Below the pieces are notes generated by a model. The model was not told where the DNA came from, made no database searches, and saw only the letters and a program-made list of their open reading frames with translations. A stretch of 64,000 nucleotides of DNA from Anaerolineales bacterium (lineage in GTDB: Bacteria > Chloroflexota > Anaerolineae > Anaerolineales > UBA11858): assembly GCA_041686005.1 (NCBI GenBank), contig JAWLER010000001.1, positions 95,756-159,755 on the forward strand. Reading direction: 5' to 3'. A program made the position numbers and the translations under genes. Position 1 is the stretch's first letter. Every line of letters begins with the position of its first letter. Positions 7,966 through 27,621 of the stretch are shown here, piece by piece.

Positions 7966-9078
7966 ATGTCTCTCAAACAAGGTTCTCTCCTCATAGATAG
8001 ATACCGGATCATCGAAGTCCTCGGTCAAGGGGGGATGGGCTCCATCTACCGGGCTGTAGATGAAAACCTGGGGGTTGAGGTAGCGGTCAAAGAGAATCTG
8101 TTCACTATTGAGGATTACACGCGGCAATTCAAGCGGGAAGCGGTTATCTTAGCCAGTCTGCGGCACCGGAATTTGCCTCGCGTCACGGACCACTTTTCCA
8201 TCGAAAATCAAGGGCAATACTTGATTATGGATTATGTGGAGGGGGAGGACCTTCAGGAGAGGATGGAGCGCGTTAAGGTCATCCCGGAGGAAGAGGTGAT
8301 TGTGATCGGGGCGACCATTTGTGATGCGCTTGCCTACATGCACTCCCATGATCCTGTCGTTTTGCACAGGGATATCAAACCGGGAAATGTGCGGATCACG
8401 CCCAGAGAGGAAATCTTCCTGGTGGATTTCGGGTTGGCGAAGATCATCAGGGGAGACCAGACGACCTCCACCGGCGCCAGAGCCATGACGATGGGTTTCT
8501 CCCCCCCCGAGCAGTATGGCGCTGCCCGAACGGATCCCAGAACAGATATTTACTCTTTAGGGGCGACCCTGTACACTGCCCTGACGGGGATCACGCCCGA
8601 AGACAGCCTGGCGCGGACGATGGATCAGGAGGAATTGACCCCTGTCCGAGAGCGGAATCCGAAAGTGTCCCGGCGCGTTGCCGATGCCATCGAAAAAGCC
8701 CTTGAGGTGCATCCTAATAACCGCTTTCAAATGGCTGCGGAGTTTAAAAACGAGCTGCTGAAAGCGCAGAGCGGGCGGTTTGCCTTCAGCTTTAGCATGG
8801 ATCGAACGGAAGTGTCGCATCAGGGGGACAGAAAAGAAGACCAAGAATCAGAGGCTGACCGCATTATCACCAAAGATTTGGATGAGGGGGTAAAGGAAAA
8901 GGTCGTTTCCTCTTTTCTGAAAGAGGGGAAAGATCAATCTCCATCCCGGGCGGAGCGATTCCGGGGCGGCTGCCTTTCCTTGTTGGCCCTGATCGGATTG
9001 ATCGTGGTATTGGCGCTGGCAGTGTTTTGCCTGTTATACCCTTCTTTGGCGAATCATCTGTTTGGTTTTAACTTTTAA
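7966..9078 (+). CDS. Hanks-type serine/threonine protein kinase with C-terminal transmembrane anchor
   Basis: GQGGMGSIY glycine loop, VAVK, HRDIKPGN and DFGLA motifs, with a hydrophobic tail LSLLALIGLIVVLALAVFCLL. Confidence 0.9.
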   Translation: MSLKQGSLLIDRYRIIEVLGQGGMGSIYRAVDENLGVEVAVKENLFTIEDYTRQFKREAVILASLRHRNLPRVTDHFSIENQGQYLIMDYVEGEDLQERMERVKVIPEEEVIVIGATICDALAYMHSHDPVVLHRDIKPGNVRITPREEIFLVDFGLAKIIRGDQTTSTGARAMTMGFSPPEQYGAARTDPRTDIYSLGATLYTALTGITPEDSLARTMDQEELTPVRERNPKVSRRVADAIEKALEVHPNNRFQMAAEFKNELLKAQSGRFAFSFSMDRTEVSHQGDRKEDQESEADRIITKDLDEGVKEKVVSSFLKEGKDQSPSRAERFRGGCLSLLALIGLIVVLALAVFCLLYPSLANHLFGFNF

Positions 9079-9190
9079 TCTGCAATCCCGGACACAGTGG
9101 GGGATATGATTTTACTATCTAAGCTATCGCAACGGTCGATCATTAAATCCTTTATCCACCCTGTCCACAAGAGCTATTTGTCATGAACAT

Positions 9191-9250
9191 TTAATTGTCT
9201 GACAATTGACAATTCACCCCCTTTTTGTTACACTTTTAATTGTCAGACAA
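9191..9250 (+). promoter_or_regulatory. sigma70-like promoter (TTGACA-17-TACACT) flanked and overlapped by two palindromic GntR-type operator candidates
   Basis: AATTGTC-T-GACAATT lies at 9193-9207 and AATTGTC-A-GACAA at 9238-9250, with centres 45 bp apart. TTGACA is at 9206-9211, followed by a 17-nt spacer and TACACT at 9229-9234. The first gene of the island starts at 9286. Confidence 0.6.
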
Positions 9251-9285
9251 CTCAGGATGTCCAGATTATAAACCGGGTAGGGCGA

Positions 9286-10668
9286 ATGAGCACATTATTG
9301 GTTAAAAACGCGCAAATATTGCTTACCATGGATGACCACCGTCGGGAGATCAAAGGCGGTGGTATTTTCATTAAAGACGGCTTCATCGAAGAGGTGGGTC
9401 CCAGCGCTTCGTTGCCGGATCAGGCGGATGAAGTCCTTGATGTTTCAGGGCATATCGTGCTCCCTGGACTGGTGAACACGCACCACCATTTTTATCAGAC
9501 ATTGACCAGGGTCATCCCAGATGCTCAAGATGTCAATCTCTTCCATTGGTTGAAGACGCTCTATCCCATTTGGGCCAGAATGGGACCGGAGGAAATCAGG
9601 GTGTCCACGAAGACCGCCTTGGCTGAGTTAGCTCTCTCCGGGTGCACGACAGCTTCGGATCACCTCTATCTCTTCCCCAATGGTTCTCGTTTGGATGATG
9701 AAATACAGTCAGCCCAAGAGATCGGCCTGCGATTGCACGCTTCCCGGGGCTCGATGAGTTTAGGGGAGAGCAAAGGGGGGCTTCCGCCGGACAGCGTGGT
9801 GGAGGATGAAGACGAAATCCTGCGCGATTCCCAGCGGGTGATTGAGACATACCATGATCCCGAACCGGGTTCTTTTCTGCAAATTGTGCTCGCACCCTGC
9901 TCGCCCTTCAGCGTCACAGGGGATTTGATGCGGGAAAGCGCTGCCCTGGCTCGAGAATACGGCGTCCGCTTGCATACCCATCTGGCAGAGACAGAAGATG
10001 AGATTGATTTTTGTCTGGAACAATTTGGAAAACGCCCAGTTGCTTACATGGAAGATGTGGGTTGGATGGGGCCGGATGTCTGGTTTGCCCATTCTGTGCA
10101 CATCAATGATGATGAAATGGCAGAGTATGCAAAGCACGACTGCGGCGTCGCTCACTGCCCCGGTTCAAACATGCGCCTGGCGTCCGGTGCGGCTCCCATC
10201 CTCGATATGTTGAAGGCAGGGATCCGGGTGGGCGTCGGGGTCGACGGCTCAGCCAGCAATGATAGTTCGCACATGATCGAAGAGGTCCGGCGGGCCATGC
10301 TATTGGCTCGTTTAAGAGCGGGTATGTTGGGGGCTTCTCGCTCGGGAGAGAATGGCTTGCCGATCATGTCTGCCCGCCAGGCTTTAGAGATCGGGACGCG
10401 GGGCGGCGCGGCTGTCTTAGGCCGTACGGACATCGGTGCTTTGGAGAAGGGGAAAGTGGGAGATTTCATCGCCCTGGATTTGCGGCAGTTGGGGTATGCC
10501 GGCGCGCTGCATGATCCGGTCGCAGCTGTCAATTTCTGTGCTCCGAGCGGTGTTGCCTACAACGTGGTGGGTGGGAAATTCGTCGTCAAGGAAGGCGAGT
10601 TGGTCTCTGTGGATATCAACCAACTCATTGAAACCCACAATCAATTGGCGCAGCAGCTGGTTCGCTGA
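9286..10668 (+). CDS. amidohydrolase of the guanine/8-oxoguanine/cytosine deaminase group (COG0402)
   Basis: PGLVNTHHHFYQTLTR metal-binding motif, HTHLAET, and HCPGSNMRLASG .. GVGVDGSASND. Confidence 0.85.
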   Translation: MSTLLVKNAQILLTMDDHRREIKGGGIFIKDGFIEEVGPSASLPDQADEVLDVSGHIVLPGLVNTHHHFYQTLTRVIPDAQDVNLFHWLKTLYPIWARMGPEEIRVSTKTALAELALSGCTTASDHLYLFPNGSRLDDEIQSAQEIGLRLHASRGSMSLGESKGGLPPDSVVEDEDEILRDSQRVIETYHDPEPGSFLQIVLAPCSPFSVTGDLMRESAALAREYGVRLHTHLAETEDEIDFCLEQFGKRPVAYMEDVGWMGPDVWFAHSVHINDDEMAEYAKHDCGVAHCPGSNMRLASGAAPILDMLKAGIRVGVGVDGSASNDSSHMIEEVRRAMLLARLRAGMLGASRSGENGLPIMSARQALEIGTRGGAAVLGRTDIGALEKGKVGDFIALDLRQLGYAGALHDPVAAVNFCAPSGVAYNVVGGKFVVKEGELVSVDINQLIETHNQLAQQLVR

Positions 10669-10710: not shown

Positions 10711-12522
10711 GTGTTCACCATGAGCATGAAAACCATTCGTGAACGAACGCAAACGTTAGTGGATGTGGCGATGGGGAGAGCGCCCGCCGATCTGGTGATA
10801 AAGGGGGGGCAGTGGGTGAACGTCCAGTCCGGAGAGATCATCCCTGCCATAGATATCGCTGTCGTCGGAGAGCGGATCGCTTTTGTGGGGGAGAACGCTT
10901 CTCACACCGTGGGCGACGAGACGGAGGTCATCCAAGCTGAGGGCCGTTACTTGGTGCCCGGCTTATTGGATGCCCACATGCACATTGAATCCGGTATGGT
11001 CACCATCACCGAATTCGTCCGCGCGGTGGGTCCCCACGGCACAACGGGCATGTTTGTCGATCCCCATGAGATCGCCAACGTTTTCGGTCTGAAGGGCGTT
11101 CGCTTGATGGCGGAAGAAGCGGAAAAGCAGCCTGTTCATGTCTGGGTACAAGTCCCCTCTTGCGTTCCGTCCGCCCCAGGTTTGGAGACGCCGGGATCCA
11201 GCATCGGCCCGGAAGAAGTCCAGGAAGCCATGTCTTGGGACCGGATTATCGGATTGGGGGAGATGATGAATTTCCCCGGGGTTTTTAACAGTGACCGGAA
11301 AATGCACGATGAAATGGCAGCCACCCGGGCTGCGGGAAAAGTGGTGGGCGGGCATTATGCATCCCCTGATCTGGGATTGCCGTTTCATGGCTATGCGGCA
11401 GGCGGTCCCGAGGATGATCATGAGGGGACCCGGAAGGAAGATGCCCTGGCGCGCGTCAGGCAGGGGATGAAAGCCATGCTGCGCTATGGCTCCGGCTGGT
11501 TGGATGTCGAAGCCCAGATCAAAGCGGTCACAGAAGAAGGGTTGGACCCCCGGCATTTCCTGCTTTGCACAGATGACACCCATTCTGAGACTCTGGTCAA
11601 TGAAGGACATATGGACCGTGTAGTCCGGCACACCATCGACTTGGGTGTGGATCCTCTCACCGTGATCCAGATGGCGACATTGAACACCGCAGAGCACTTT
11701 GGGGTGGCGCGGGATATGGGGCAAATCGCCCCCGGACGCTATGCGGACATCCTTCTGGTGCCGGATTTGAAAGACTTCATTGCCGAGACGGTGATCGCTA
11801 AAGGTCAGGTGATCGCGGAAAATGGGACATGGGCGATCGATTTACCGGAGGTTGAATACCCTCGTTGGGCGACACACTCCGTCAACGTCAAACGCCCTCT
11901 GACCGCGGATGATTTCCGCCTGGAGGTCCCGGAAGAGCTGTCCGGTGCGGAGCTGGAAGCCCATGTCATCGGTGTCATCGAAGGTCAGGCGCCCACAAAA
12001 CATTTGCGGGTCCCTGTCGAAGCGGAAGGTGGCGAAATCAAGGTGGATATCGGGCGTGATTTGGCGAAGATCGCTTTGGTAGAGCGCCACAATGCGACCG
12101 GCGGTGTGCAGGTCGCGCTGGTGCAGGGCTTTGAACTCGGCCCGGATTGCGCCCTCGCCAGCACGGTTGCTCATGACTCCCATCACATGATCGTGGTGGG
12201 GACGGATGAAGATCAGATGGCCCGGGCTGCCAATGAGCTGGTGGACATGCAGGGAGGGCAGGTGGTGGTCAAAGAGGATCAGATCATTGGAAAAGTCCCC
12301 CTGCCCATTGCCGGTTTGATGTCTGATAAACGGGCAGAGGTGGTTGCCGAAGAAGCCGCCTCGGTTTTAGAGGGGTTCCGGGAATGCGGGTGCACGATCA
12401 AGAATCCCAATATGCAGCTCAGCCTTTTAGCTCTGGTGGTCATCCCCGCTTTACGGATTTCGGATTTGGGATTGGTGGATGCCGATGCGTTCAAGCTCAT
12501 CCCAGCAGTTGAAGAAGTATAA
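10711..12522 (+). CDS. ade: adenine deaminase
   Basis: ~600 aa with VPGLLDAHMHIESGM..GTTGMFVDPHEIANV, typical of the Ade family. The true start may be ATG 10720 or 10726 rather than GTG 10711. Confidence 0.85.
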   Translation: MFTMSMKTIRERTQTLVDVAMGRAPADLVIKGGQWVNVQSGEIIPAIDIAVVGERIAFVGENASHTVGDETEVIQAEGRYLVPGLLDAHMHIESGMVTITEFVRAVGPHGTTGMFVDPHEIANVFGLKGVRLMAEEAEKQPVHVWVQVPSCVPSAPGLETPGSSIGPEEVQEAMSWDRIIGLGEMMNFPGVFNSDRKMHDEMAATRAAGKVVGGHYASPDLGLPFHGYAAGGPEDDHEGTRKEDALARVRQGMKAMLRYGSGWLDVEAQIKAVTEEGLDPRHFLLCTDDTHSETLVNEGHMDRVVRHTIDLGVDPLTVIQMATLNTAEHFGVARDMGQIAPGRYADILLVPDLKDFIAETVIAKGQVIAENGTWAIDLPEVEYPRWATHSVNVKRPLTADDFRLEVPEELSGAELEAHVIGVIEGQAPTKHLRVPVEAEGGEIKVDIGRDLAKIALVERHNATGGVQVALVQGFELGPDCALASTVAHDSHHMIVVGTDEDQMARAANELVDMQGGQVVVKEDQIIGKVPLPIAGLMSDKRAEVVAEEAASVLEGFRECGCTIKNPNMQLSLLALVVIPALRISDLGLVDADAFKLIPAVEEV

Positions 12523-12524
12523 CC

Positions 12525-13262
12525 ATGGGTACACAAGGGGTTTCAGAAACAGTCCAATTGCAGTTGAGTGCCATCATCGCTGAGATGGAAACCGGGGAGC
12601 GGCTTCCCTCGGAACCCAAGCTCGCGAACCAGCTGGGAGTGTCCCGGGCCACCCTTCGGGAGGTGATGAGGACCTTTGAAACGCGGGGCCTGCTGCGCAG
12701 GAAGCAGGGGGTGGGCACGTTTGTGATCCATCCCACCCAGGTTTTCGAAAGCGGCTTGGAGAATTTGGTCAGCTTGGAGACCTTGGCGGAGAGGATTGGG
12801 CTTTCTGTATCCATGGGGGAATTGGAAATAGAACGGGGTTTCCCTGGCGATGAGGAAGCGGAAGCCTTGAACCTGGACCAGGATGTGGACATTGTCCGCG
12901 TCACGAGGGTCATTATGGCGGAGAACCGGCCAGTCGCTTATTTGGTCGATATTTTACCCACCGATATCTTGGCACCGGACGAAATCCCGCCGGATTTCAC
13001 GGGTTCCATTTTGGACTTGCTTTTGGAAAAGAATCAACCTCCCTTAGCGAGCTCCCGCACGGACATCAACGCCACCGGTGCTTCTCCGGAAATCGCCAGT
13101 GCCCTGGATATCCAACGCCATGCCCCCTTGCTGGTGTTTTGCTCTCAGCTCTACTCTACCAGGGGGCGGGTGGTTGATTATTCCTTCAGCTATTTCTTGC
13201 CAGGTTATTTCCGGTTTCACATTGTACGCCATATAGGGAACAGGATTTCAGGTTCCTCCTAG
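12525..13262 (+). CDS. GntR-family transcriptional regulator (HutC-like, probable UTRA effector domain)
   Basis: The wHTH reads LPSEPKLANQLGVSRATLREVMRTFETRGLLRRKQGVGTFV, and the 245-aa length fits the family. Its start is only 2 nt after the adenine deaminase stop, so it is probably co-transcribed. Confidence 0.85.
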   Translation: MGTQGVSETVQLQLSAIIAEMETGERLPSEPKLANQLGVSRATLREVMRTFETRGLLRRKQGVGTFVIHPTQVFESGLENLVSLETLAERIGLSVSMGELEIERGFPGDEEAEALNLDQDVDIVRVTRVIMAENRPVAYLVDILPTDILAPDEIPPDFTGSILDLLLEKNQPPLASSRTDINATGASPEIASALDIQRHAPLLVFCSQLYSTRGRVVDYSFSYFLPGYFRFHIVRHIGNRISGSS

Positions 13263-13334: not shown

Positions 13335-14288
13335 ATGCGAAGTTTTTTGGGACGAGACATTTTATCTTTGAAGGATTTTGAACGACGTGAATTCCAGCGG
13401 GTTTTTGAGGTCGCTGAGGAACTGGCGCCCATCGCCCACAATCGAAAGAACGTTGACCTTCTCCAGGAAAAAACGCTGGTGACGGCTTTCTATCAACCGT
13501 CCACCCGCACTCGCTTGGCGCACGAGTCCGCTATGCTGCGACTGGGTGGAAAAGTGACCGGCTTTGCGGATGCCAGTGTGACCCGGGCGGGGGACTTCTA
13601 CCAGGAGTCCATCAAGGACACGTTTAAGATGTTGGAGCATTACGGGGATGTGATCGTCACCCGGCACTTCCAAAAAGGTGCACCGCACGAAGCCGCCAAA
13701 TGGGTCAGCGTGCCGGTGATCAACGGCGGGGATGGGTGGGGCGAGCATCCCACACAGATTCTGACCGACCTTTATACCATTTACCGGGAAAAAGGGACCA
13801 TCGACGGTTTGAATTGGGTTGCCGTGGGCGACATGCGCATGCGCACCATGCACTCCTTGGGCCACGCCCTGACCCAATTTGACTGCCCCTTGACCTTGAT
13901 TTCGCCGGACGATATGTCCCTCCCTGATGAGTACAGGGAAGACTTCAAAGCGGGTAGCCTGAATTTCACCGAGGGCGGCGATGTCCGTGAGGTGATTGGC
14001 CAAGCGGATGTCATCCTGGTAGAGCCTGTCGTACAACCGGATTACACCAAATCCCGCGACGAACGGAAAGGCGAGGTGGCCCAGACGCCGCCGCAGTTCA
14101 AGATCACCAAGGAATTGCTGGAGACCAAGGCGAAATCTGATGCCATCCTGCTCCACTCACTACCCCGCATGGATGAAATCCCCCCGGATGTGGACCACAC
14201 CCGTTGGTCGCGTTACTGGGAAGAGGGCTTCAACGGCGTGGTCATGCGTATGGCGCTTCTGGCCTTGGTGCTGGGCGCGAAGGAGTAA
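13335..14288 (+). CDS. aspartate-carbamoyltransferase-like transcarbamylase with a divergent second-substrate site
   Basis: Carbamoyl-phosphate motifs STRTR and HPTQ are present, and the HPLPR motif reads HSLPRMDEI. The canonical TRVQKER segment appears as EPVVQPD in a by-eye alignment. Confidence 0.8.
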   Translation: MRSFLGRDILSLKDFERREFQRVFEVAEELAPIAHNRKNVDLLQEKTLVTAFYQPSTRTRLAHESAMLRLGGKVTGFADASVTRAGDFYQESIKDTFKMLEHYGDVIVTRHFQKGAPHEAAKWVSVPVINGGDGWGEHPTQILTDLYTIYREKGTIDGLNWVAVGDMRMRTMHSLGHALTQFDCPLTLISPDDMSLPDEYREDFKAGSLNFTEGGDVREVIGQADVILVEPVVQPDYTKSRDERKGEVAQTPPQFKITKELLETKAKSDAILLHSLPRMDEIPPDVDHTRWSRYWEEGFNGVVMRMALLALVLGAKE

Positions 14289-14393
14289 GGTAGGGACTCA
14301 TACCGAAGATGAGAAGGGGGCTGAAGCCATGATCTTCATCCATAGCTCTAGTCCCCCTCATGATTTGAAATTTCGAAGAGAGGAGTTTGAAAG

Positions 14394-15374
14394 ATGATTA
14401 CGGATTTGAGAAATCGAGATCTGATCAGCGACCTTGATTTCAGTAAAGAAGAAGTGGAAACGGTGCTTGACGTGGCCTGGGATCTGAAGAAGAAGCAGGC
14501 CCTCGGTCAGCCCCACGCTTATTTACGAGATAAGACCCTGGGTATGCTGTTTTTCTTTTCCAGCACGCGAACGAGGTCGTCCTTTGAAGCCGGGATGGCA
14601 CAGTTAGGAGGTCATGCGGCCTTCATCGAAAGCCGCACCACCCAGGTCTCCCATGGGGATACGGAGAAAGAATTGGGTGAAATTTTGGGACGCTACTTTG
14701 ATGGGATTGCCATCCGTCATGTGGATTGGGGGGTTGGCAATAACTACCTTAACAATGTCGCCTCCGCTTCCCGCGTCCCCGTGCTCAACATGCAAGATGA
14801 GTTTTACCATCCCCATCAATGCCTGGCGGATTTGATGACTATCCAGGAAAAGAAAGGGAAGGATTTACGTGGTAAGAAGATCGTCGTTTCCTGGGCCTAT
14901 GCCTCTTCCTACCTGAAACCGATCTCCGTCCCCCAATCGTTAATATTGCAGATGCCTCGCTTCGGGTTGGACGTCACCTTATCCCACCCCCCGGAATTTG
15001 AACTCATGCCGGAGATCATGGAACAGGCCCGGGAACAGGCCGCATTGTTCGACACCAAGTTCGAAGTCGTCCATGATATGAAAGAAGGCTTTGAAGGGGC
15101 GGATATCGTGTATGCCAAGTCCTGGGGCCCGCTGTTGACAACTCGCGATCAGGATGAAGGCAAGCGCATTCAGGACCAGTACAAAGATTGGATCACGGAT
15201 TCGGAGAAGATGGCCCTGGCGGACAAGGATGCCGTTTATATGCATCCCCTTCCTGCGGATCGGGATGTCGAGGTCACCAGCGAAGTGATGGATGGTCCGC
15301 AGTCCGTGGTGTATGATCAAGCTGAGAATCGATTGCATGCTCAAAAAGCTGTCATGGCGTTGACCATGCGTTAG
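14394..15374 (+). CDS. transcarbamylase of unknown specificity (YgeW-like rather than OTC/PTC)
   Basis: STRTR and HPHQCLADL motifs are present, HPLPA replaces HCLP, and there is no DxxxSMG ornithine motif (AKSWGP instead). The block KKIVVSWAYASSYLKPISVPQS resembles what I recall of the E. coli YgeW subfamily. Confidence 0.75.
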   Translation: MITDLRNRDLISDLDFSKEEVETVLDVAWDLKKKQALGQPHAYLRDKTLGMLFFFSSTRTRSSFEAGMAQLGGHAAFIESRTTQVSHGDTEKELGEILGRYFDGIAIRHVDWGVGNNYLNNVASASRVPVLNMQDEFYHPHQCLADLMTIQEKKGKDLRGKKIVVSWAYASSYLKPISVPQSLILQMPRFGLDVTLSHPPEFELMPEIMEQAREQAALFDTKFEVVHDMKEGFEGADIVYAKSWGPLLTTRDQDEGKRIQDQYKDWITDSEKMALADKDAVYMHPLPADRDVEVTSEVMDGPQSVVYDQAENRLHAQKAVMALTMR

Positions 15375-15383
15375 GAGATAAGT

Positions 15384-16340
15384 ATGAGTGAAGATCGCAA
15401 AGTAGCCGTTGTCGCCATCGGCGGCAACTCATTGATCAAGAGCAAGGACCACCAGACTGTAGAAGATCAGTACCAGGCGGCGAAGGAGACGGCCAAACAC
15501 CTGGTGGACATGATCGAGCAGGGATGGGATATCGCCATCGGGCACGGAAATGGGCCCCAGGTGGGGTTCATCCTCCGCCGCTCGGAGATCGCAGCTCGGG
15601 TGGAAGGCATGCATGAATTGCCGCTGGATGTGTGTGGTGCAGACAGCCAGGGCGCGATTGGCTATGCCTTACAGCAAAACATTCAGAACGAGCTGCAGGA
15701 ACGGGGCATTGACAAGGGGGCAGCCACCGTGATCACCCAGGTCCGGGTGGACCCGGACGATCCAGCCTTCCAAGAACCGTCCAAGCCCATCGGAAGTTTC
15801 ATGGAGGAAGGCGAAGCCCAGCGCAGGGAAAAGGAAGACGGCTGGGATGTGGTCGAAGATGCCGGACGGGGCTGGCGGCGTGTCGTCCCTTCTCCCTTAC
15901 CCCAAGAGATCATGGAGTTGGACGCGGTGAAAGCCTTGATTGAGGCCGGGACCATCACCATCACCGTGGGCGGCGGCGGCATCCCGGTCATTCGCGATGG
16001 GGACGGGGTGAGGGGGACCGCAGCGGTGATTGACAAAGATTTCGCGTCCGGCCTGCTGGCGAACGAAATCAATGCTGATTTGTACTTGATCTCCACCGCA
16101 GTGGAAAAAGTAGCCCTGAATTTCGGGAAACCAAATCAGGAGTGGATCGATACCATGACCGTCGCCGATGCGAAGCGGTACCTGGAGGAAGGCACGCACT
16201 TCGCCAAAGGCTCCATGGAACCGAAGATCAAAGCCATCGTGCGCTTCTTGGAGAGCGGCGGCAAGGAGGCCATCGTCACCAATCCGGAAAATATCGGGCG
16301 GGCGTTAAAGGGAGAGACCGGTACACATATCCTCCCTTAG
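15384..16340 (+). CDS. carbamate kinase
   Basis: VVAIGGNSL .. GHGNGPQVG .. TVGGGGIPV motifs and a length of 318 aa. The start is 9 nt after the transcarbamylase stop. Confidence 0.9.
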   Translation: MSEDRKVAVVAIGGNSLIKSKDHQTVEDQYQAAKETAKHLVDMIEQGWDIAIGHGNGPQVGFILRRSEIAARVEGMHELPLDVCGADSQGAIGYALQQNIQNELQERGIDKGAATVITQVRVDPDDPAFQEPSKPIGSFMEEGEAQRREKEDGWDVVEDAGRGWRRVVPSPLPQEIMELDAVKALIEAGTITITVGGGGIPVIRDGDGVRGTAAVIDKDFASGLLANEINADLYLISTAVEKVALNFGKPNQEWIDTMTVADAKRYLEEGTHFAKGSMEPKIKAIVRFLESGGKEAIVTNPENIGRALKGETGTHILP

Positions 16341-16620
16341 CATAAGAACAGATGCGGTGATAACGCAACGGGTCTTCTTCAGCCAGCATGGTTCTTTGGC
16401 TTATGAAGAGCAGGTATACTACATAGGAAAGGCCGGTCTGTGATCCGCTCGGGGATGAAAGTCAGGAGTAAGGCCGAGGTGCAAGGGAGTGGATGCTGGT
16501 GCGGAAGGTGGTCATCCCCATCGAGAGGGGGTGGGATGTCCATCATCCGTCCCTGGATTTGTGAACCGTGAAGGGGATCACTCCCCAAGACAGGTGCTGT
16601 ATATTGAAAGGAATTCGATC

Positions 16621-17772
16621 ATGAAAAAGTGGCTGAAAGATGAATGGGTGTCGCAATTTGTTGATACCTCACTGCCCATCGTGGCAGCGCTGGGAGCATT
16701 TGCCTTAGGTGCAGTCATGCTCTTATTTTTCAATGTCAATCCTTTTGAAGCATATGGTGCCCTCATCAGGGGTGCATTCGGAAGCTGGAATTCAGTTGCT
16801 GAAACATTGGTGAAAGCGACGCCTTTGTTACTCGTGGGGATAGGGATTTGCATATCTTTCCGGGGGGATGTGATCAACATCGGTGGCGAAGGGCAAATGA
16901 TCGTTGGGGCCATCCTGGGCACCTTTGTGGGATTGAACTTAACCCAATTGCCTGGTTGGTTGGGGATCGTGTTGGCATTTCTCGGTGGATTTGTGGGGGG
17001 CGCTATTTGGGGCGGTATACCAGGCGCCTTAAAAGCCTATTTCAACGTCAATGAGATCCTAAGCACGGTGATGATGAACGCGATTGCCGTTCAATTGATG
17101 AATTTTTTGCTCCGAGGTCCGATGATCGACCCCGCTCAAGCGGAATTGGCCTCCAAGATCCCCCAAACCGCTCGCCTGCAAGACGCCTTCCACTTGCCCC
17201 GTTGGGTACCCACCCGGTTGCATCTCGGGTCGTTGATCGCTGTGGTCCTGGCTATTTTAGTCTACATCCTTTTGTGGCGAACGGTGTTGGGTTATCGCAT
17301 CCGTGCTGTGGGTCAAAGCCCTCATGCTGCTCGGTATGCCGGGATCAAAGTCAAACAGAGTGTGGTTTTAGCGCTTTTGTTGAGTGGAGCTTTTGCGGGT
17401 TTAGCAGGCGTGACCAAAGTCTATGGGGTCAATTATCGTATGATCACAGATGGCTCAGCTTCTGGGTTTACGGGGAGCGCAGGTTTCAACGGTATTGTGG
17501 CCGCCTTGTTCGGTCAGCTTCATCCCATTGGGACCATTCCAGCCTCCATATTATTTGGGGGACTGCTTGTAGGTGCCAATAAAATGCAGCGGGTGATGCA
17601 AATTCCTTCCGCTTTGATCACCGCCCTTAACGGTTTGGTGGTGGTCTTTGTGGTCAGCAGTGAGGTCCTACGTCAAAGGCGACAGCGGCACAGGCTGGCG
17701 GAGAAAATGAAAGAAGTAAGCCAAAATGAGGGGGGTGTGCCAGATGATGACAGCCGGGAGGTGGGAGGATGA
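16621..17772 (+). CDS. ABC transporter permease (BMP/nucleoside-type)
   Basis: Multi-pass permease. I prefer ATG 16621 (MKKWLKDEW..) over the track start 16489, whose N-terminal extension is non-hydrophobic and lies in a probable leader. The stop overlaps the next permease by 4 nt. Confidence 0.8.
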   Translation: MKKWLKDEWVSQFVDTSLPIVAALGAFALGAVMLLFFNVNPFEAYGALIRGAFGSWNSVAETLVKATPLLLVGIGICISFRGDVINIGGEGQMIVGAILGTFVGLNLTQLPGWLGIVLAFLGGFVGGAIWGGIPGALKAYFNVNEILSTVMMNAIAVQLMNFLLRGPMIDPAQAELASKIPQTARLQDAFHLPRWVPTRLHLGSLIAVVLAILVYILLWRTVLGYRIRAVGQSPHAARYAGIKVKQSVVLALLLSGAFAGLAGVTKVYGVNYRMITDGSASGFTGSAGFNGIVAALFGQLHPIGTIPASILFGGLLVGANKMQRVMQIPSALITALNGLVVVFVVSSEVLRQRRQRHRLAEKMKEVSQNEGGVPDDDSREVGG

Positions 17773-18701
17773 TTTCAGATTTGTTTTCAGCGACGGTCCT
17801 GGTTGGCATCCTGGCCTCTGGAATCCGATTGGCTACCCCTTACTTGTATGCAGCGCTCGGTGAAACGTTCAGCCAGCGGAGCGGGGTTTTGAACCTGGGC
17901 GTGGAGGGGCAGATGCTTTTAGGAGCTTTTGCTGCCTTCTATGTCGCCTTTACCACTGGAAACTTATGGCTGGGTATGCTGGCAGCCTTGATTGTCGGCG
18001 CCATGATGGGGCTGGCGATGGCATTTGTCACCGTGAATCTTCATGCAGAGCAGGGCATCAGTGGGATCGGTTTTTATCTCTTCGGTCTGGGAATGAGCGA
18101 CTTACTCTTCCAAAAGGTTCTGGGTACGGTGGAAACCGTGAAAGGGTTCCCCAAAGTGAACATCCCCTACTTAAGCGATCTTCCTGTGTTGGGCAAAATC
18201 CTCTTTCAACATAATATTCTGGTATATATCGCTTTTGCCCTGGTTCCCATCAGCTGGTTTGTGATCAATAAGACCACATTGGGATTGAAAATTAGGTCGG
18301 TGGGAGAGAACCCGGAAGCAGCCGATTCCCTGGGTGTGAGCGTAGCTCGTGTCCGGTATTTTACCGTCATCCTCGGCGGAGCCATGTCAGGGATCGCTGG
18401 CGCCTCCCAATCTATTGCATTGTTGAACGTATTTCAGCAAAATATGACCAGCGGCTTGGGATTCATCGCTGTGGCTTTGGTGTACTTTGGCGCTTGGCGA
18501 CCTGCGGGTGTCATGGGAGGGGCGTTGATCTTCAGCATGGTGAACTCCCTGCAGTTATGGATTCAAGTTTTAGGCATCCCCATCCCCTCGGATATCGCTG
18601 TGATGATGCCTTATATTTTGACCATATTAGTCTTGATGTCTTCGGCATCAGGTGTCCGTTCGCCATCGGCATTAACCAGACCTTTTGAGCGTGAAGAGTG
18701 A
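17769..18701 (+). CDS. ABC transporter permease (second subunit, BMP/nucleoside-type)
   Basis: 310-aa multi-pass protein, translationally coupled to the preceding permease. Confidence 0.85.
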   Translation: MISDLFSATVLVGILASGIRLATPYLYAALGETFSQRSGVLNLGVEGQMLLGAFAAFYVAFTTGNLWLGMLAALIVGAMMGLAMAFVTVNLHAEQGISGIGFYLFGLGMSDLLFQKVLGTVETVKGFPKVNIPYLSDLPVLGKILFQHNILVYIAFALVPISWFVINKTTLGLKIRSVGENPEAADSLGVSVARVRYFTVILGGAMSGIAGASQSIALLNVFQQNMTSGLGFIAVALVYFGAWRPAGVMGGALIFSMVNSLQLWIQVLGIPIPSDIAVMMPYILTILVLMSSASGVRSPSALTRPFEREE

Positions 18702-18807
18702 ATAACTGTGGCCTTCTATAAATAAAAAAGGAGGTGGTGTCCTCTCATGAAAGAAGGCTTAGAATTGGTGGTTGATTTGTAGACTTTAAAGAAAAAAGGA
18801 GAGAAAA

Positions 18808-19812
18808 ATGAGGAAGAATAGTTTATCCATTTTGTTTTTGATCTTCACCATGATCCTGACCGCATGCGGTGGAGCAGCTGGCGGAGAAGAGGAGGGGGTG
18901 TTTAAAGTCGCCCTTGTCATGCCCAGCCCTGTCAGCGACCTGGCCTTCAGCCAGAGCATGTACGATGCTTTGATGTTGATCCAGGAAGAGATGGGCGGTG
19001 AGGAAGCGATGACAGTGGTCTATTCAGACAACATGTTCGTCGTCGATGATGCTGCTGCAGCTATCCGGGACTATGCCTCTCAAGGGATAGACCTGGTCAT
19101 CGCCCATGGATCCCAATATGGCTCCTCACTACAAGAAATTGCGCCCGATTTCCCCGACACGGCCTTTGCTTGGGGTACGACGGTGGATACCTTTAAAGAT
19201 CAGGGCATAGATAACGTCTTTGCATATGAGGCCCGTTCAGAAGAGGGCGGGTATGTCAACGGCGTTGTGGGTACCACCCTTTCCGACAGCAAAGTTTTGG
19301 GAGTGGTCGGCCCCATTGAAACCGGCGATGCCAAACTCTATGTCGATGGTTTCGTAGCAGGGGCGAAAGCCACCGATCCGGATGTCAAAGTCAATGTGAA
19401 CTACATCGGTTCTTTCTCCGATGTGGCCTTGGCTTCTGAAGCTGCCAACACGCATGTTTCAGCGGGCGCTGATGTGCTGACCGGGTCCGCGCAGATGGTC
19501 ACCGGCGCGATCGGAGTCGCTGAGGAGAGCGATGTCCTCTGGTTCGGCACGCAGGCCAACCAGACCGAACTCGCGCCCAGCGTCGTGGTCGCCAATCAGG
19601 TCTATCACTGGGAGGTCATCCTCCGGGATATGATTGACAATGTCCAGAACGGGACATTAGGCGGCGAAGTCTACACGATCGACTTGGCGAATGACGGATT
19701 GCAGATTGAATTCAATCCTGACTTCGATCTGCCAGAAGATGTAAAGTCTTTGGCGGATGAGACCATCCAGGGCATCATTGACGGTGAGATCACGGTTGGC
19801 GTAGGTGAGTAA
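18808..19812 (+). CDS. BMP-family (PnrA/Med-like) ABC substrate-binding lipoprotein
   Basis: Signal peptide with lipobox LTACGG, and KVALVMPSPVSDLAFSQSMYDAL typical of the basic-membrane-protein family, which binds purine nucleosides and bases. Confidence 0.8.
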   Translation: MRKNSLSILFLIFTMILTACGGAAGGEEEGVFKVALVMPSPVSDLAFSQSMYDALMLIQEEMGGEEAMTVVYSDNMFVVDDAAAAIRDYASQGIDLVIAHGSQYGSSLQEIAPDFPDTAFAWGTTVDTFKDQGIDNVFAYEARSEEGGYVNGVVGTTLSDSKVLGVVGPIETGDAKLYVDGFVAGAKATDPDVKVNVNYIGSFSDVALASEAANTHVSAGADVLTGSAQMVTGAIGVAEESDVLWFGTQANQTELAPSVVVANQVYHWEVILRDMIDNVQNGTLGGEVYTIDLANDGLQIEFNPDFDLPEDVKSLADETIQGIIDGEITVGVGE

Positions 19813-19826
19813 GTTTTCTTGGGGAA

Positions 19827-19856
19827 AAGACCAGGGGGAACCAACCCCCTGGTCTT
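19827..19856 (+). other. strong intra-operon stem-loop between the SBP and ATPase genes (12-bp stem, 6-nt loop, no U-tract)
   Basis: AAGACCAGGGGG-aaccaa-CCCCCTGGTCTT read directly; it is followed by CCCCCTTCC rather than a T-run. Confidence 0.6.
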
Positions 19857-19892
19857 CCCCCTTCCTGTCATACCCGATAGAAAGGATGAGCG

Positions 19893-21449
19893 ATGTCTGA
19901 AGAAAATGTGCTTCCCACAGGTGAAACCCGGATTGACCACATGGAAATGCGATCGATTACCAAACGCTTTCCTGGGGTCTTAGCCAATGATCGGATTGAT
20001 TTCGAGGTCAAATCTGGGGAAGTTCACGCCTTATTAGGGGAAAATGGTGCCGGTAAAAGCACCTTGATGAATGTCCTCTATGGCTTGTATCAGGCTGATG
20101 AAGGCCAGATTTTCCTGAACGGGGAAGAGATCAGGATCCAATCCCCCACAGATGCCATCAAAAACGGGATTGGCATGATCCATCAACATTTCATGCTGGT
20201 GGAGACGTTAACGGTGGCCGAAAATGTGGCTTTGGGTTTGGAATCTTCCCGCAAGCCGCTGACGGACTTAGATCACGTCACAGAACGCGTTTTAGAGCTT
20301 GCCGATGTGTATGGCCTGGAAATGGATCCCGGCGCTTATATTTGGCAATTGTCAGTGGGTCAGCGCCAGCGGGTGGAGATCATGAAAGCGCTCTATCGGG
20401 GGGCTGCATTGCTGATCCTCGATGAACCCACCGCGGTGTTGACACCTCAAGAGGTGGACGAGTTATTCCAAATCATCCGCGAGATGGCGGAAGATGGACA
20501 TGCACTTATCTTTATATCTCATAAATTGCACGAAGTGATCGACATCAGCGATCGCGTCACGGTCTTGCGTGGCGGGCGCAAAGTGGGCACTTACCAAACG
20601 GAAGAGGTCACCAAATCCGATTTGGCGAGGAGGATGGTAGGTCGGGAGGTTATCTTCCGCCCCGACATCGCGGAGGTTGAAGCTGGAGAGGTCCGTTTGG
20701 AGGTCAATCACGTGTCCTGCAAGAGTGACCGGGGCACGCCCGGTTTACGGGAGGTGGACTTGGAAGTCAGATCCGGAGAGATCTTGGGTGTGGCTGGGGT
20801 CTCCGGAAACGGTCAACTTGAGCTGGCGGAGGTCATCACAGGACTGAGGGAGGTTACGGAGGGACGGATCATTTTGGATGGCGAGGATATCACAAGGTAT
20901 CCCCCCATTGAACGAACGGACCGTAAGCTTGCCTACATCCCTGAAGAACGCATGCGGGATGGGATGATCAAAGAGTTTACGGTGGCGGAGAATCTGATCC
21001 TTCGCGAACATCACAGGAAACCCTTTTCCCAATCCGGCTTCCTGAATCTAAAGGCGATCAGGGAAAACAGCGATGAGTTAATTGACAACTATCAGATTAA
21101 AACCCCCTCCAGGGAAACCCTGGCGAAAAGCCTCTCCGGGGGGAATATTCAGAAGGTCGTGGTGGCCCGGGAGCTCTCCCGAAAACCGCGCGTGATCGTG
21201 GCTTCTCAGCCCACCCGTGGGCTTGATGTCGGCGCCACGGAGTACGTTCGGGAACAGTTGCTGTCGCAGCGCAAAGAAGGTACAGCCATCCTGCTTATCT
21301 CAGAGGACCTGGATGAGATCCTGGCCTTGGCGGATCGCATTGCCGTCATCTATGAAGGCCAAATCATGGGCATCGTCCCTGGGGATCAAGCCACCCCGCA
21401 AGAGTTGGGCTTGATGATGGCTGGTGTGAAAGAAAGAGAAAAGGAATAG
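19893..21449 (+). CDS. ABC transporter ATP-binding protein, duplicated ATPase domains
   Basis: Two nucleotide-binding domains: GENGAGKST / LSVGQRQR / LLILDEPT, then GVSGNGQ / LSGGNIQK. Confidence 0.9.
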   Translation: MSEENVLPTGETRIDHMEMRSITKRFPGVLANDRIDFEVKSGEVHALLGENGAGKSTLMNVLYGLYQADEGQIFLNGEEIRIQSPTDAIKNGIGMIHQHFMLVETLTVAENVALGLESSRKPLTDLDHVTERVLELADVYGLEMDPGAYIWQLSVGQRQRVEIMKALYRGAALLILDEPTAVLTPQEVDELFQIIREMAEDGHALIFISHKLHEVIDISDRVTVLRGGRKVGTYQTEEVTKSDLARRMVGREVIFRPDIAEVEAGEVRLEVNHVSCKSDRGTPGLREVDLEVRSGEILGVAGVSGNGQLELAEVITGLREVTEGRIILDGEDITRYPPIERTDRKLAYIPEERMRDGMIKEFTVAENLILREHHRKPFSQSGFLNLKAIRENSDELIDNYQIKTPSRETLAKSLSGGNIQKVVVARELSRKPRVIVASQPTRGLDVGATEYVREQLLSQRKEGTAILLISEDLDEILALADRIAVIYEGQIMGIVPGDQATPQELGLMMAGVKEREKE

Positions 21450-21456
21450 GCATAGG

Positions 21457-22695
21457 ATGCGTAAATTTGTCGGTTACCGGTGCTCGGTGTGCGGAAGGGA
21501 ATACGGCCCCGATGAGGTGACGTATACCTGCCCTAAAGATGATGGGATTTTGGATGTCGTACTGGATTACCCGGCCTTAAGGGAAAAGGCGAAGGGTGAC
21601 CTTATCCTGGGGGAGGAGGCCTCTTTATGGCGGTACCTCCCCCTCTTGCCGGTGGAGGAAAGGATAGGGGAGGGCACTTCCCTCCGGGCGGCAGGTTGGA
21701 CACCGACGTATGCCCCTCCTGTGTTGAAGGAGGAGCTGGGGCTTGCTCAATTGTGGGTCAAAGATGAGAGCCCTAACCCCACAGCTTCCTTCAAAGACCG
21801 GGCCAGCGCGCTTTTGATCGTTCGGGCCCGGGAAATAGGCGCTGACGTGATCGTCACCGCCTCGACGGGAAATGCCGGGGCGGCTTTGGCGGGGATGGCT
21901 GCAGCGGTGGGGCACCGGTCCGTGATCTTCGCCCCCAAAACAGCCCCACCGGCGAAAATCGCCCAGCTGTTGATTTATGGGGCGCAGGTTATCCTGGTGG
22001 ATGACAACTATGACGCAGCCTACCAGTTGTCGCTGGAGGCGACACGGGCGTTCGGCTGGTACAACCGGAATACGGGCTATAACCCTTTCACTGCAGAGGG
22101 AAAGAAAACCGCGGCATTTGAAATTTGGGAAACGGTCATAGAGGAAAACGATTTCGAGCGACCCTTATGCGTTTTCGTCTCTGTGGGGGACGGGAACATC
22201 ATTTCCGGGTTACATAAAGGATTTAAGGACCTCTCTGAAATCGGGAAGCTTGGGCAGATGCCGCGCATTTTTGGCTGCCAGTCCACAGGGTCGGCGGCGA
22301 TCGCCAATGCCTTCCAAAAGGGGACAGAGGAGATCGAGCCCGTGTCCGCGGACACACTGGCGGACAGCATCTCCGTGAATTTACCCAGCGATGGATTGCG
22401 GGCCCTGCGGGCGGCGACGGAAACGGATGGCGCCTACGTGGCTGTTGAAGATCAGGCCATCCTGCAAGCGGTCTCAGATTTGGGCCGGGTGGGGATCTTC
22501 GCTGAGCCAGCCGGAGCGACCTCCTATGCGGGATTGAAAAAAGCCCTTCAGGAGGGCCTGGTTGAAGCCCAGGATCCGATCCTGGTCTTGAACACGGGCA
22601 GCGGATTGAAAGATGTCGATGCCGCGATGGACGCTGCAGGGGAAGCGCCGGTGATCAAGCCCGATTTGGAAGAAGTCAAGAAGCTGCTCGCATAG
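21457..22695 (+). CDS. threonine-synthase-family PLP (fold-type II) enzyme with N-terminal Cys4 zinc ribbon
   Basis: CSVCGREYGPDEVTYTCPKDDG ribbon, SFKDRA PLP-lysine motif, and GNAGAA. It starts 7 nt after the ATPase stop. Confidence 0.75.
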   Translation: MRKFVGYRCSVCGREYGPDEVTYTCPKDDGILDVVLDYPALREKAKGDLILGEEASLWRYLPLLPVEERIGEGTSLRAAGWTPTYAPPVLKEELGLAQLWVKDESPNPTASFKDRASALLIVRAREIGADVIVTASTGNAGAALAGMAAAVGHRSVIFAPKTAPPAKIAQLLIYGAQVILVDDNYDAAYQLSLEATRAFGWYNRNTGYNPFTAEGKKTAAFEIWETVIEENDFERPLCVFVSVGDGNIISGLHKGFKDLSEIGKLGQMPRIFGCQSTGSAAIANAFQKGTEEIEPVSADTLADSISVNLPSDGLRALRAATETDGAYVAVEDQAILQAVSDLGRVGIFAEPAGATSYAGLKKALQEGLVEAQDPILVLNTGSGLKDVDAAMDAAGEAPVIKPDLEEVKKLLA

Positions 22696-22737: not shown

Positions 22738-23694
22738 ATGACCACATACTCGATTATCGCTCCCATATATAACGAAATGGAAAACCTCCCCGTTCTTTAC
22801 CGCCGGGTCGGTGAGGTCATGGCTAAAACGGGGGAAACGTGGGAATTTGTCATGGTGGACGATGGCTCCACGGATGGATCCGTGGAGCGTATCCGGGAGT
22901 TTGCGGAACAGGATGATCGTGTTCGCCCGGTGATCTTCGCCCGCAATTTTGGCCATCAGATCGCGGTCACGGCGGGGTTGGATTACAGCCGGGGGGATGC
23001 TGTGGTGGTGATCGACGCGGACTTGCAGGACCCTCCGGAAGTGATCTTAGACTTAATCGAGAAATGGAAGGAAGGGTATGAGGTGGTTTACGCTGTCCGT
23101 GATAAACGTGAGGGCGAAAGCTGGTTTAAACTGGCTACCGCGGCGGCTTTTTACCGCATCATCCAGCGGATCACGGAGGTCAATATCCCTTTGGACACGG
23201 GCGATTTCCGTCTCCTGGACAGGAAAGTGGTTTCGGTCATGAAGCGGATGCGTGAACGGCACCGCTTTTTGCGGGGGATGTCGGTTTGGGTAGGCTTCAA
23301 GCAGGCCGGTGTGACCTATGAACGTGAAGAACGGTATGCCGGGGAGACCAAATACCCTTTGCGCAAGATGTTGAAATTGGCCAGCGATGCGGTCACCGGT
23401 TTTTCCTATTTTCCCCTTCAGCTTGCGATGGGCCTCGGTTTCACGGCGGCGGGATTGGGGTTGTTGGTGCTGTTGATCCTCATCGCCTTGCGTTTGGCTG
23501 GTTCAGGCGCTTACTCTGGCCAGGCGCTGACCCTGATTGTGGTCTTATTCCTAGGGGGTGTGCAGCTGATGTTTTTGGGGGTCGTGGGGGAGTACATTGG
23601 GCGCATCTATGATGAGGTCAGAGGAAGGCCATTGTACATTGTCCGGGAAGCTCCGGAAGAAAATCAAAGCGAACCTAAGTGGATGGATTTGTAA
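22738..23694 (+). CDS. family-2 glycosyltransferase (polyprenol-phosphate glycosyltransferase, GtrB/Dpm1/ArnC-like) with two C-terminal TM helices
   Basis: [10 protein letters not shown] .. [11 protein letters not shown] .. [10 protein letters not shown] motifs plus a hydrophobic C-terminus. Confidence 0.85.
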
Positions 23695-25983: not shown

Positions 25984-26176
25984 ACCAGAACCATTTCTGG
26001 GCCGACGTGGTGGGGCGCTGTCTTTCAAAGAGCCGGGTGGAGAGGGGTAAAAGCCTCCTGCTCCATTCTTTGGTTCCCCAAGATGTGCAGTATAATCCCA
26101 TGGTAGATCGGCTTTTATACCACCTGTGGGTCCTCATGCAGGAGACGAATCGGGGATTGTTTCAAAGGATGAACCT

Positions 26177-27598: not shown

Positions 27599-27621
27599 TG
27601 GTTCTTGAGGAGGGAACAAGG

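Follow-up and report, generated by a model that had tools for sequence, protein, structure and literature searches.

A tandem of non-canonical transcarbamylases in an Anaerolineales bacterium as a candidate module for two phosphorolytic steps of anaerobic purine degradation

The genome of an Anaerolineales bacterium (phylum Chloroflexota; GenBank assembly GCA_041686005.1) carries two tandem transcarbamylase genes, referred to here as TC1 and TC2, which are followed directly by a carbamate kinase gene. They lie in a window of 64,000 nucleotides, the whole stretch of DNA analysed here, which spans positions 95,756 to 159,755 of contig JAWLER010000001.1. TC1 belongs to the aspartate carbamoyltransferase (ATCase) branch of the transcarbamylase family, and TC2 resembles YgeW, a carbamoyltransferase of Escherichia coli. 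Purine deaminases, a transporter, two pyridoxal phosphate (PLP) enzymes and a hydantoinase are encoded nearby (Table 1), raising the question of what the pair does in this setting.

Table 1. The transcarbamylase and kinase module and other genes of the window, with the family evidence for each (position 1 is the first nucleotide of the window)
Feature	Coordinates	Strand	Size and family evidence
TC1: ATCase-branch 'pseudo-ATCase' (HSLP / RAGD type)	13335-14288	+	317 aa; two transcarbamylase Pfam domains
TC2: compact YgeW-type carbamoyltransferase	14394-15374	+	326 aa; two transcarbamylase Pfam domains
Carbamate kinase	15384-16340	+	318 aa; TIGR00746, NF009007
8-oxoguanine deaminase-type amidohydrolase	9286-10668	+	NF006055 684 bits (cutoff 532)
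Adenine deaminase	10711-12522	+	TIGR01178 502 bits (cutoff 472); Adenine_deam_C domain
GntR/UTRA (HutC-type) transcription regulator	12525-13262	+	Pfam GntR and UTRA
BMP/PnrA-type ABC transporter (two permeases, binding protein at 18808-19812, ATPase)	16489-21449	+	Pfam Bmp (PnrA-like), BPD_transp_2, ABC_tran
Threonine-synthase-like (ThrC-like) PLP enzyme	21457-22695	+	Pfam PALP; fold-type II
Cysteine-synthase-like (CysK-like) PLP enzyme	23723-25183	+	486 aa; Pfam PALP; weak CysK/CBS matches; fold-type II
D-hydantoinase/dihydropyrimidinase, HyuA-like	26126-27598	+	TIGR02033 510 bits (cutoff 393); 38% identity to E. coli HyuA
Family-2 glycosyltransferase	22738-23694		PgfS/ArnC-like, polyprenyl-phosphate sugar transferase type
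Open reading frame	25405-25983		192 aa; no Pfam/NCBIfam match
Dihydropteroate synthase	27469-28491		Sul4 (sulfonamide-resistant) model 391 bits (cutoff 600)
Amidohydrolase, TRZ/ATZ and MTA/SAH-deaminase type	2594-4579	-	661 aa; best model 462 bits (cutoff 540)
Bacterial alpha-2-macroglobulin-like protein	38058-44156		2032 aa; MG2, bait-region, A2M and bMG10 domains

An AGGAG-type ribosome-binding site precedes each of the three genes. The gaps between them hold no terminator-like site beyond shuffled background, and a scan for promoters and terminators likewise gave nothing above it. The TC2 stop codon (TAG, 15372-15374) and the kinase start codon (ATG at 15384) leave a gap of 9 nt, as had been counted in an earlier first-pass annotation made from the sequence without database searches. 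The kinase itself scores above the cutoffs of two curated equivalog models (TIGR00746, 385 bits against 358; NF009007, 409 bits against 266) and shares 51% identity with E. coli YqeA. Carbamate kinases convert carbamoyl phosphate and ADP into ATP, NH3 and CO2.

TC1 contains STRTR (residues 56-60), HPTQ (138-141), GDMRMRTMHSL (165-175) and HSLPRMDEI (274-282), and all of the motifs that the first-pass annotation had quoted for the two transcarbamylases were found in the sequence. The carbamoyl-phosphate site of ATCase (S52-T53-R54-T55, R105, H134, Q137) corresponds to S56-T59, R110, H138 and Q141 of TC1, which are invariant among 120 homologues. With these residues all intact, TC1 is presumably catalytically competent. 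Its second-substrate site is different. The equivalent of Arg167, the alpha-carboxylate ligand in ATCase, is kept, whereas in the RxQxER segment Arg229 is replaced by Pro231, Gln231 by Val233 and Arg234 by Asp236, so that this signature is absent. The 80s loop (T-RAGD-FYQES) has no lysine and thus lacks Lys84, and HPLP reads HSLP; both changes are invariant in the same 120 homologues, and the residues that stand in for Arg229 and Gln231 are invariant as well. The acidic residues Glu230 and Asp236 lie near the replaced aspartate side-chain site. Judged by these residues, TC1 is not an aspartate carbamoyltransferase. A kept Arg167, lost Arg229 and Gln231, and nearby acidic groups would suit an alpha-amino acid with an amine or ureido side chain, not a carboxylate, and by analogy with ATCase we infer that the second substrate of TC1 is of this kind. 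The pattern is the opposite of what N-carbamoyl-aspartate or N-carbamoyl-beta-alanine, both suggested as substrates in the first-pass annotation, would need.

The pairing of TRVQKER with EPVVQPD, and with it the loss of Arg229, had been read by eye. The same register is obtained by HMMER against the sequence of the Pyrococcus abyssi ATCase structure, by a 97-sequence MAFFT alignment with 47 canonical ATCases among its members and by profile-profile alignment with hhalign. It also fits an AlphaFold2 model of TC1 (pLDDT 84), in which a beta-strand runs up to residue 229 and then gives way to a long coil. A small three-reference MAFFT alignment instead placed TRVQKER on TKSRDER, eight residues downstream. 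This alternative was rejected against the four concordant results; it would supply Lys239 and Arg241, and RxQxER would be missing there too.

At the family level, TC1 passes one curated ATCase model (TIGR00670, 257 bits, cutoff 237) and fails another (NF002032, 225 bits, cutoff 263). Foldseek returned only ATCases for the TC1 model, with a TM score of 0.85 to 1ML4; to our knowledge, no pseudo-ATCase structure exists. In family trees, TC1 is part of a 'pseudo-ATCase' clade whose members have the RAGD 80s loop in common and no RxQxER motif. The Nocardioides sequences used for comparison come from the supplementary data of Barba et al. 2013 (PMC4016543). Nocardioides A1SH59 is 62-63% identical to TC1 and groups with it at 100% bootstrap. 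TC1 thus shows the full set of features of the HSLP-type pseudo-ATCases, namely STRT, HPTQ, HSLP, VxP at the RxQ position, clustering with A1SH59 and a YgeW-type neighbour. Ureidoglycine carbamoyltransferase (UGTCase) was rejected as an identity for TC1, which is 34% identical to Q1AS69, lies in a separate clade (100% support), diverges from it at both the 80s loop and the 240s region, and has no allantoinase gene nearby.

In public records, the TC1 family is called 'aspartate carbamoyltransferase', and TC2 'ornithine' or 'N-acetylornithine carbamoyltransferase', which looks like systematic misannotation. A protein fully identical to TC2 is on record from an Anaerolineales MAG (metagenome-assembled genome). 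Several proteins 84-85% identical to TC1 and TC2 are labelled as belonging to 'Candidatus Heimdallarchaeaceae' metagenome-assembled genomes (MAGs). Nearly all other close homologues are from Chloroflexota, and these labels look like binning contamination.

TC2 carries STRTR and HPHQ. Alignment agrees with the first-pass annotation that it lacks the DxxxSMG motif of ornithine carbamoyltransferase (OTCase), having AKSWGP (KSWGPLL) at this position, and that it has HPLPA (HPLPAD) in place of HCLP. It is 34% identical to E. coli YgeW, and its proline-rich (knot) loop block, SWAYASSYLKPISVPQS, aligns with TWAYSPSYGKPLSVPQG of YgeW. The YgeW block given in the first-pass annotation is correct: SWAYASSYLKPISVPQS of TC2 matches E. 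coli K-12 YgeW MTWAYSPSYGKPLSVPQG from NC_000913. Eight second-substrate residues of YgeW have been proposed from its structure, namely Q98*, D124, Q160, S200, K203, K270, D334 and E344 (Shi et al. 2015). TC2 keeps seven of these (Q98, Q160, S200, K203, K270, D334 and E344), all invariant in 120 homologues, and the sole mismatch is His109 for D124. The N- and C-terminal helices of YgeW and its 120s and 240s insertions are all absent.

TC2 scores below every curated cutoff of the candidate families, namely those for OTCase (262 bits against 306; 247 against 281), N-acetylornithine carbamoyltransferase (AOTCase; 264 against 288), putrescine carbamoyltransferase and YgeW. AOTCase Trp77 and Glu144 correspond to Gln84 and Gln134 in TC2. 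With DxxxSMG, HCLP, Trp77 and Glu144 all missing and the curated cutoffs not reached, OTCase and AOTCase were rejected as identities. The residues missing from the two substrate sites support the first-pass view that neither protein is a canonical ATCase or OTCase. In a bootstrapped neighbour-joining tree, TC2 groups at 100% support with Anaerolinea thermophila E8MZ16, Nocardioides A1SH60 (62% identity) and proteins of Moorella and Halanaerobium, and this clade is sister to E. coli YgeW at 83% support. The orthologues E8MZ16 and A1SH60 were labelled 'YTC' in the 2013 family tree (PMC4016543). We propose that TC2 is in effect a minimal YgeW and predict it to be a 2,3-diureidopropionate carbamoyltransferase. 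Its homologous loop sequence hints at a possible trefoil knot. The AlphaFold2 model of TC2, for which the alignment was shallow (sequence identity of 82% or more), had a pLDDT of 60 and was too poor for a knot test or fold search.

A scan of species-representative genomes with TC2 gave at least 596 confirmed relatives, and the best 80 loci were examined for gene context. Nearly all of these are labelled Chloroflexota, mainly Anaerolineae, with 75-96% identity; one is labelled Zixiibacteriota. The order GntR regulator, TC1, TC2, carbamate kinase is highly conserved among them and, since it recurs in dozens of species-level genomes, is not a chance arrangement. Upstream partners were counted in the 62 loci where 2.6 kb or more of sequence precedes TC2. 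TC1 alone is the partner in 47 loci. In seven others, all in Anaerolineae, the slot between GntR and TC2 is instead occupied by a YgeY-family M20 hydrolase; five loci have both, and three have neither. The YgeY-family proteins score 446-488 bits with TIGR03526 (cutoff 321.5). No alignment column of TC2, including the variable residue of HPxQ (His or Phe), tracks whether the partner is TC1 or YgeY, and TC2 therefore appears to do the same job in both settings. Carbamate kinase is adjacent in all 50 assessable TC1 loci. Among the YgeY-only loci, five of seven have no adjacent kinase, and in one Mesolinea MAG (L049), YgeY-family genes (8648-9859 and 11266-12513) flank TC2 on both sides with no adjacent TC1 or kinase.

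The wider context is that of urate degradation. A YgeW-type setting, with kinase and urate-pathway genes, is found for TC2: the kinase lies downstream in 62 of 76 loci, YgeY occurs in 12, and SsnA, YgfK or Xdh genes accompany the module in loci L050, L072 and L088. For instance, L072 contains XdhB/C/A-like genes, YgeY, TC1, TC2, the kinase, two PLP genes, YgfK (870 bits, cutoff 835) and SsnA (554 bits, cutoff 444). L050 has a selenium-dependent xanthine dehydrogenase (926 bits, cutoff 830), SsnA (511 bits, cutoff 444) and an F420 reductase together with the module. In L088, from an Acidimicrobiia MAG, an Xdh fragment, an SsnA-like gene and an F420-dependent LLM oxidoreductase lie directly upstream of TC1, TC2, kinase and two PLP genes, whose products are 65% (TC1), 64% (TC2), 62.5% (kinase), 49% (ThrC-like) and 65% (CysK-like) identical to those of the window. 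An F420 variant of the urate pathway has been noted for Chloroflexota (PMC12507026), and the L050 and L088 contexts agree with it.

This distribution also bears on the most ordinary explanation, that the locus is biosynthetic, with TC1 as the pyrB ATCase, TC2 as an (acetyl)ornithine carbamoyltransferase and the kinase as supplier of carbamoyl phosphate. The TIGR00670 match of TC1, the names in public records and the high conservation of both proteins would all be expected on this view, to which we nevertheless assign only a very small probability. TC1 has lost Lys84, Arg229, Gln231 and HPLP and fails NF002032, TC2 lacks DxxxSMG and HCLP and falls under every OTCase and AOTCase cutoff, and a hydrolase replaces TC1 in seven genomes. 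No pyr or arg genes are adjacent to the module in the 80 loci, and neither the window nor these loci contain a canonical pyrB or argF (defined by RxQxER with HPLPR, and DxxxSMG with HCLP, respectively). In Anaerolinea thermophila, an OTCase (E8N5X1) exists alongside the TC2 orthologue E8MZ16 as a protein of its own, and pseudo-ATCases are known to coexist with authentic ATCases (PMC4016543).

The TC1 family also reaches cultured actinomycetes. In Streptomyces griseoflavus, a relative with 47% identity to TC1 and the same RAGD / EPVVQPDY / HSLP signature (L083, 10001-10996) follows a nonribosomal peptide synthetase (NRPS) gene, and its stop codon overlaps the start of SbnA (378 bits, cutoff 350), indicating translational coupling. 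SbnB (394 bits, cutoff 327), a glutamate mutase and a Rieske oxygenase are encoded nearby. An Actinoplanes orthologue with 69% identity to TC1 (L085, 102-1085) abuts SbnA, SbnB and a ThrC-like gene whose product is 40% identical to that of the window. SbnA and SbnB together make L-2,3-diaminopropionate. The position of these relatives beside SbnA and SbnB suggests that TC1-type enzymes take diaminopropionate, or its mono-carbamoyl form, as their second substrate. The actinomycete relatives may themselves be diaminopropionate carbamoyltransferases of a second type, one that belongs to the ATCase branch. Two further relatives had uninformative contexts, one standing alone (P0501) and the other lying in a DcsG-containing cluster (P0403).

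These neighbourhoods, in which the relatives probably carbamoylate diaminopropionate, also allow for TC1 being synthetic, giving an albizziin-like product, or for TC1 not being an independent catabolic enzyme at all and serving instead to drain off carbamoyl phosphate, or to partner or regulate TC2. Transcarbamylase equilibria also favour carbamoylation. Against this, carbamate kinase invariably accompanies TC1 in the assessable loci, the operons are throughout of a GntR-type catabolic kind with deaminases and a transporter, the Chloroflexota loci hold no biosynthetic genes, and the catalytic carbamoyl-phosphate residues are all intact and invariant. We consider such roles distinctly improbable for TC1 in the window.

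We see an even chance that the region encodes the energy-conserving end of anaerobic (reductive, 2,8-dioxopurine-type) purine or urate degradation, with TC1 and TC2 both acting phosphorolytically. Purines would be imported and deaminated, and urate would be reduced and its rings opened by Xdh, a reductase and SsnA, whose genes do not lie in the window. The HyuA-like hydantoinase would open urate-derived 5-(ureidomethyl)hydantoin to 2,3-diureidopropionate, one ureido group of which TC2 would remove by phosphorolysis. TC1 would phosphorolyse the other, performing the step of YgeY without hydrolysis, and active-site logic suggests that it takes the 2-(alpha)-ureido group. Carbamate kinase would turn both carbamoyl phosphates into ATP, giving 2 ATP per purine compared with 1 in E. 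coli, and the resulting 2,3-diaminopropionate would presumably be deaminated to pyruvate by one of the two downstream PLP enzymes. Because YgeY fills the same slot in seven loci and the TC2 columns are alike in both settings, TC1 can be regarded as the equivalent of YgeY, and we propose that it is a carbamoyl-diaminopropionate phosphorylase acting in place of this hydrolase.

In this scheme the sequence features, orthology, synteny and slot replacement are observed, and both substrates, the reaction directions, the regiochemistry and the ATP yield are predicted. Several points weigh against it. The activities of TC1 and TC2 are assigned by sequence comparison, and TC2 lacks the YgeW insertions and lies far below the curated YgeW cutoffs (TIGR03316, 182 bits against 500; NF005538, 192 against 453). 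Two 2025 studies (bioRxiv 10.1101/2025.04.24.650524; PMC12507026) disagree on which ureido group YgeW removes, so the regiochemistry given for TC1 follows from the ATCase analogy. Two successive phosphorolyses are thermodynamically unfavourable and depend on a pull from later steps. The SbnA/SbnB product is the L isomer, whereas the urate intermediates are provisionally assigned as R (D). The 64-kb window contains no Xdh, reductase or SsnA gene, and the source of diureidopropionate is extrapolated from relatives; in turn, no HyuA-like gene lies within the 10-kb flanks of L050, L072 and L088. Finally, TC1 and YgeY occur together in five loci and are thus not strict alternatives.

This last observation leaves room for a third substrate, and so for a division of labour in which TC2 acts on diureidopropionate and TC1 handles another ureido compound that feeds the same kinase. 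Candidates include a second SsnA or hydantoinase product, allantoate or ureidoglycine (as for UGTCase), oxalurate, N-carbamoyl-beta-alanine and N-carbamoyl-aspartate. SsnA yields two products in vitro (PMC12507026), the sole characterised pseudo-ATCase, Rxyl_2847, cleaves allantoate, which is also a diureido acid, and a dihydropyrimidinase-type gene lies nearby. We nevertheless regard this alternative as unlikely. TC1 is distant from the ureidoglycine enzyme in identity, clade and 80s loop, and no allantoinase or uricase was found among the annotated proteins of the window or in the loci examined. The arginine pattern of the active site argues against aspartate and beta-alanine derivatives, and both the YgeY-occupied slot and the diaminopropionate-synthesis genes beside TC1 relatives favour a diaminopropionate compound.

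Under the double-phosphorolysis scheme, the new element would be a second, ATCase-branch transcarbamylase that makes the second decarbamoylation phosphorolytic and stands in for YgeY. No account of an ATCase-type diaminopropionate carbamoyltransferase, or of a pathway variant with double phosphorolysis, turned up in a search of the literature. The broader form of this proposal is more tentative, and we put it somewhat short of even: TC1 would define a new specificity, an ATCase-branch N-carbamoyl-2,3-diaminopropionate:phosphate carbamoyltransferase that replaces YgeY in Chloroflexota and Actinomycetota with a yield of 2 ATP, and that runs in reverse in actinomycete natural-product clusters, carbamoylating diaminopropionate there. 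Parts of this picture had been anticipated in the first-pass annotation. Its catabolic, carbamate-kinase-coupled module is supported, and its 'two successive decarbamoylations' of 'mono/di-ureido-propionates' is the reading favoured by synteny. Its claim of novelty is not supported by the literature: phosphorolytic ureido cleavage was published for YgeW in 2025 (bioRxiv 10.1101/2025.04.24.650524; PMC12507026) and the tandem of a pseudo-ATCase with a YgeW homologue has been known from Nocardioides sp. JS614 since 2013 (PMC4016543).

The neighbouring genes indicate a purine or urate source, not the pyrimidine origin first suggested, given the 8-oxoguanine and adenine deaminases of the window and the SsnA, YgfK or F420 reductase, and Xdh genes of its relatives. 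The 8-oxoguanine deaminase gene lies upstream of the module in 26-27 of the 80 loci; this family produces urate, which would feed the pathway. Adenine deaminase is present in 31 of 80. The GntR/UTRA protein, directly upstream of TC1 or YgeY in 49-56 of 80 loci, is likely the local operon regulator. Import of purines or nucleosides is the probable role of the BMP/PnrA-type transporter, which occurs in about 28 of 80 loci and in L088 from Acidimicrobiia. The HyuA-like gene occupies the same position in L016, L017, L062 and L075.

No orthologue of YgeX (diaminopropionate ammonia-lyase) was found in any locus examined. One of the two PLP enzymes may replace it or may eliminate urea from albizziin. 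The ThrC-like enzyme, a candidate YgeX replacement, follows the kinase in 39 of 80 loci and scores 173 bits with TIGR00260 (cutoff 167) and 254 with NF006050 (cutoff 303). It is 49% identical to the L088 protein and 40% identical to the one encoded beside SbnA/SbnB in Actinoplanes. The CysK-like gene occurs in 27 of 80 loci, and its product is 65% identical across phyla (L088).

Other genes of the window were also recorded. In the window, as in about 16-18 related loci, the family-2 glycosyltransferase gene separates the two PLP genes; it is on the + strand and has no obvious link to purine catabolism. Homologues of the 192-aa open reading frame, 48-61% identical, are carried by 8-9 related loci and in most of these lie just upstream of the hydantoinase gene. 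The listed GTG start of the dihydropteroate synthase gene overlaps the end of the hydantoinase gene by 130 nt, and its true start is probably further downstream. The 661-aa amidohydrolase is extended at its C terminus by about 220 residues that match no domain, and an alpha-2-macroglobulin-like protein is encoded further along.

The anaerobic urate pathway was elucidated as recently as 2025, and its energy yield and the order of its ureido cleavages are still open questions (PMC12990295). If the proposed roles are correct, exchanging a hydrolase for a second transcarbamylase would double the ATP gained per purine in a widespread environmental variant, making urate fermentation a source of 2 ATP by substrate-level phosphorylation, and would extend a textbook enzyme family to a new substrate. 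The alpha-amine-type active site of TC1 would also help to decide which ureido group is the target of YgeW and which that of YgeY. It would offer both genetics and biochemistry a clean handle on regiochemistry, because an ATCase-type and an OTCase/YgeW-type enzyme would act on one molecule, and the cultured Nocardioides sp. JS614 and Actinoplanes carry orthologues. More generally, ATCase and OTCase labels can mislead metabolic reconstructions of Chloroflexota.

Among known systems, the closest functional counterpart is the 2,8-dioxopurine (reductive urate) pathway of E. coli, in which YgeW phosphorolyses one ureido group of 2,3-diureidopropionate and YqeA makes ATP from the carbamoyl phosphate (bioRxiv 10.1101/2025.04.24.650524; PMC12507026). 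Like YgeW (YTCase, PDB 3Q98), TC2 has the knotted-family block WAYxxSYxKP[IL]SVPQ and the seven substrate residues, it is followed by carbamate kinase, and its relatives cluster with SsnA, YgfK, Xdh and YgeY. Unlike YgeW, which has 396 aa, TC2 has 326 and does without the terminal helices and the 120s and 240s insertions, has HPLP in place of HCLP and His109 in place of Asp124, and belongs to a separate 'short YTC' clade with members from Anaerolinea, Nocardioides, Moorella, Halanaerobium and Thermotogae. TC1 occupies the same slot as the M20 hydrolase YgeY and presumably takes over its step, in which the second ureido group is removed and diaminopropionate is left. Their folds and chemistry are unrelated: hydrolysis by YgeY is irreversible and yields no ATP, whereas TC1 would work by reversible phosphorolysis, its carbamoyl phosphate going on to ATP.

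The closest genomic precedent is Nocardioides sp. JS614, where A1SH59 was described as a single-organism pseudo-ATCase subgroup beside a ygeW homologue, xdhABC and hyuA, with no function proposed (PMC4016543). A1SH59 and A1SH60 share the tandem order, the HSLP and VxP motifs and the nearby xanthine dehydrogenase and hydantoinase genes with the locus described here. Unlike that one-organism record of 2013, the tandem is now found in at least dozens of Chloroflexota species genomes and in Acidimicrobiia, always with carbamate kinase. The subgroup numbering in Table 1 of that study disagrees with its text, Figure 5 legend and tree labels. The tree labels give HTLP to Rubrobacter, HPLA to a marine group and HSLP to Nocardioides, and a 2015 review gives H(T/S)LP to the Rubrobacter enzyme.

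That enzyme, the UGTCase of Rubrobacter xylanophilus (Rxyl_2847), is like TC1 an ATCase-branch protein encoded beside carbamate kinase; it has the H(T/S)LP motif and takes one ureido group off the diureido acid allantoate. It differs in its 80s loop (SSAAKEES, compared with TRAGDFYQES in TC1) and in its oxidative context, with uricase and allantoinase. From PyrB, TC1 retains the fold, STRT, Arg105, HPTQ and Arg167, but its 160s loop is one residue shorter and its 240s loop longer, it has no pyr context, Lys84, Arg229 and Gln231 are replaced, and HPLP has become HSLP. Lastly, L-2,3-diaminopropionate transcarbamylase (DPTCase) of the viomycin and zwittermicin pathways probably shares its amine substrate, diaminopropionate, with TC1, but belongs to the OTCase branch, with HDLP and (T/S)RWQTTG motifs, whereas TC1 belongs to the ATCase branch.

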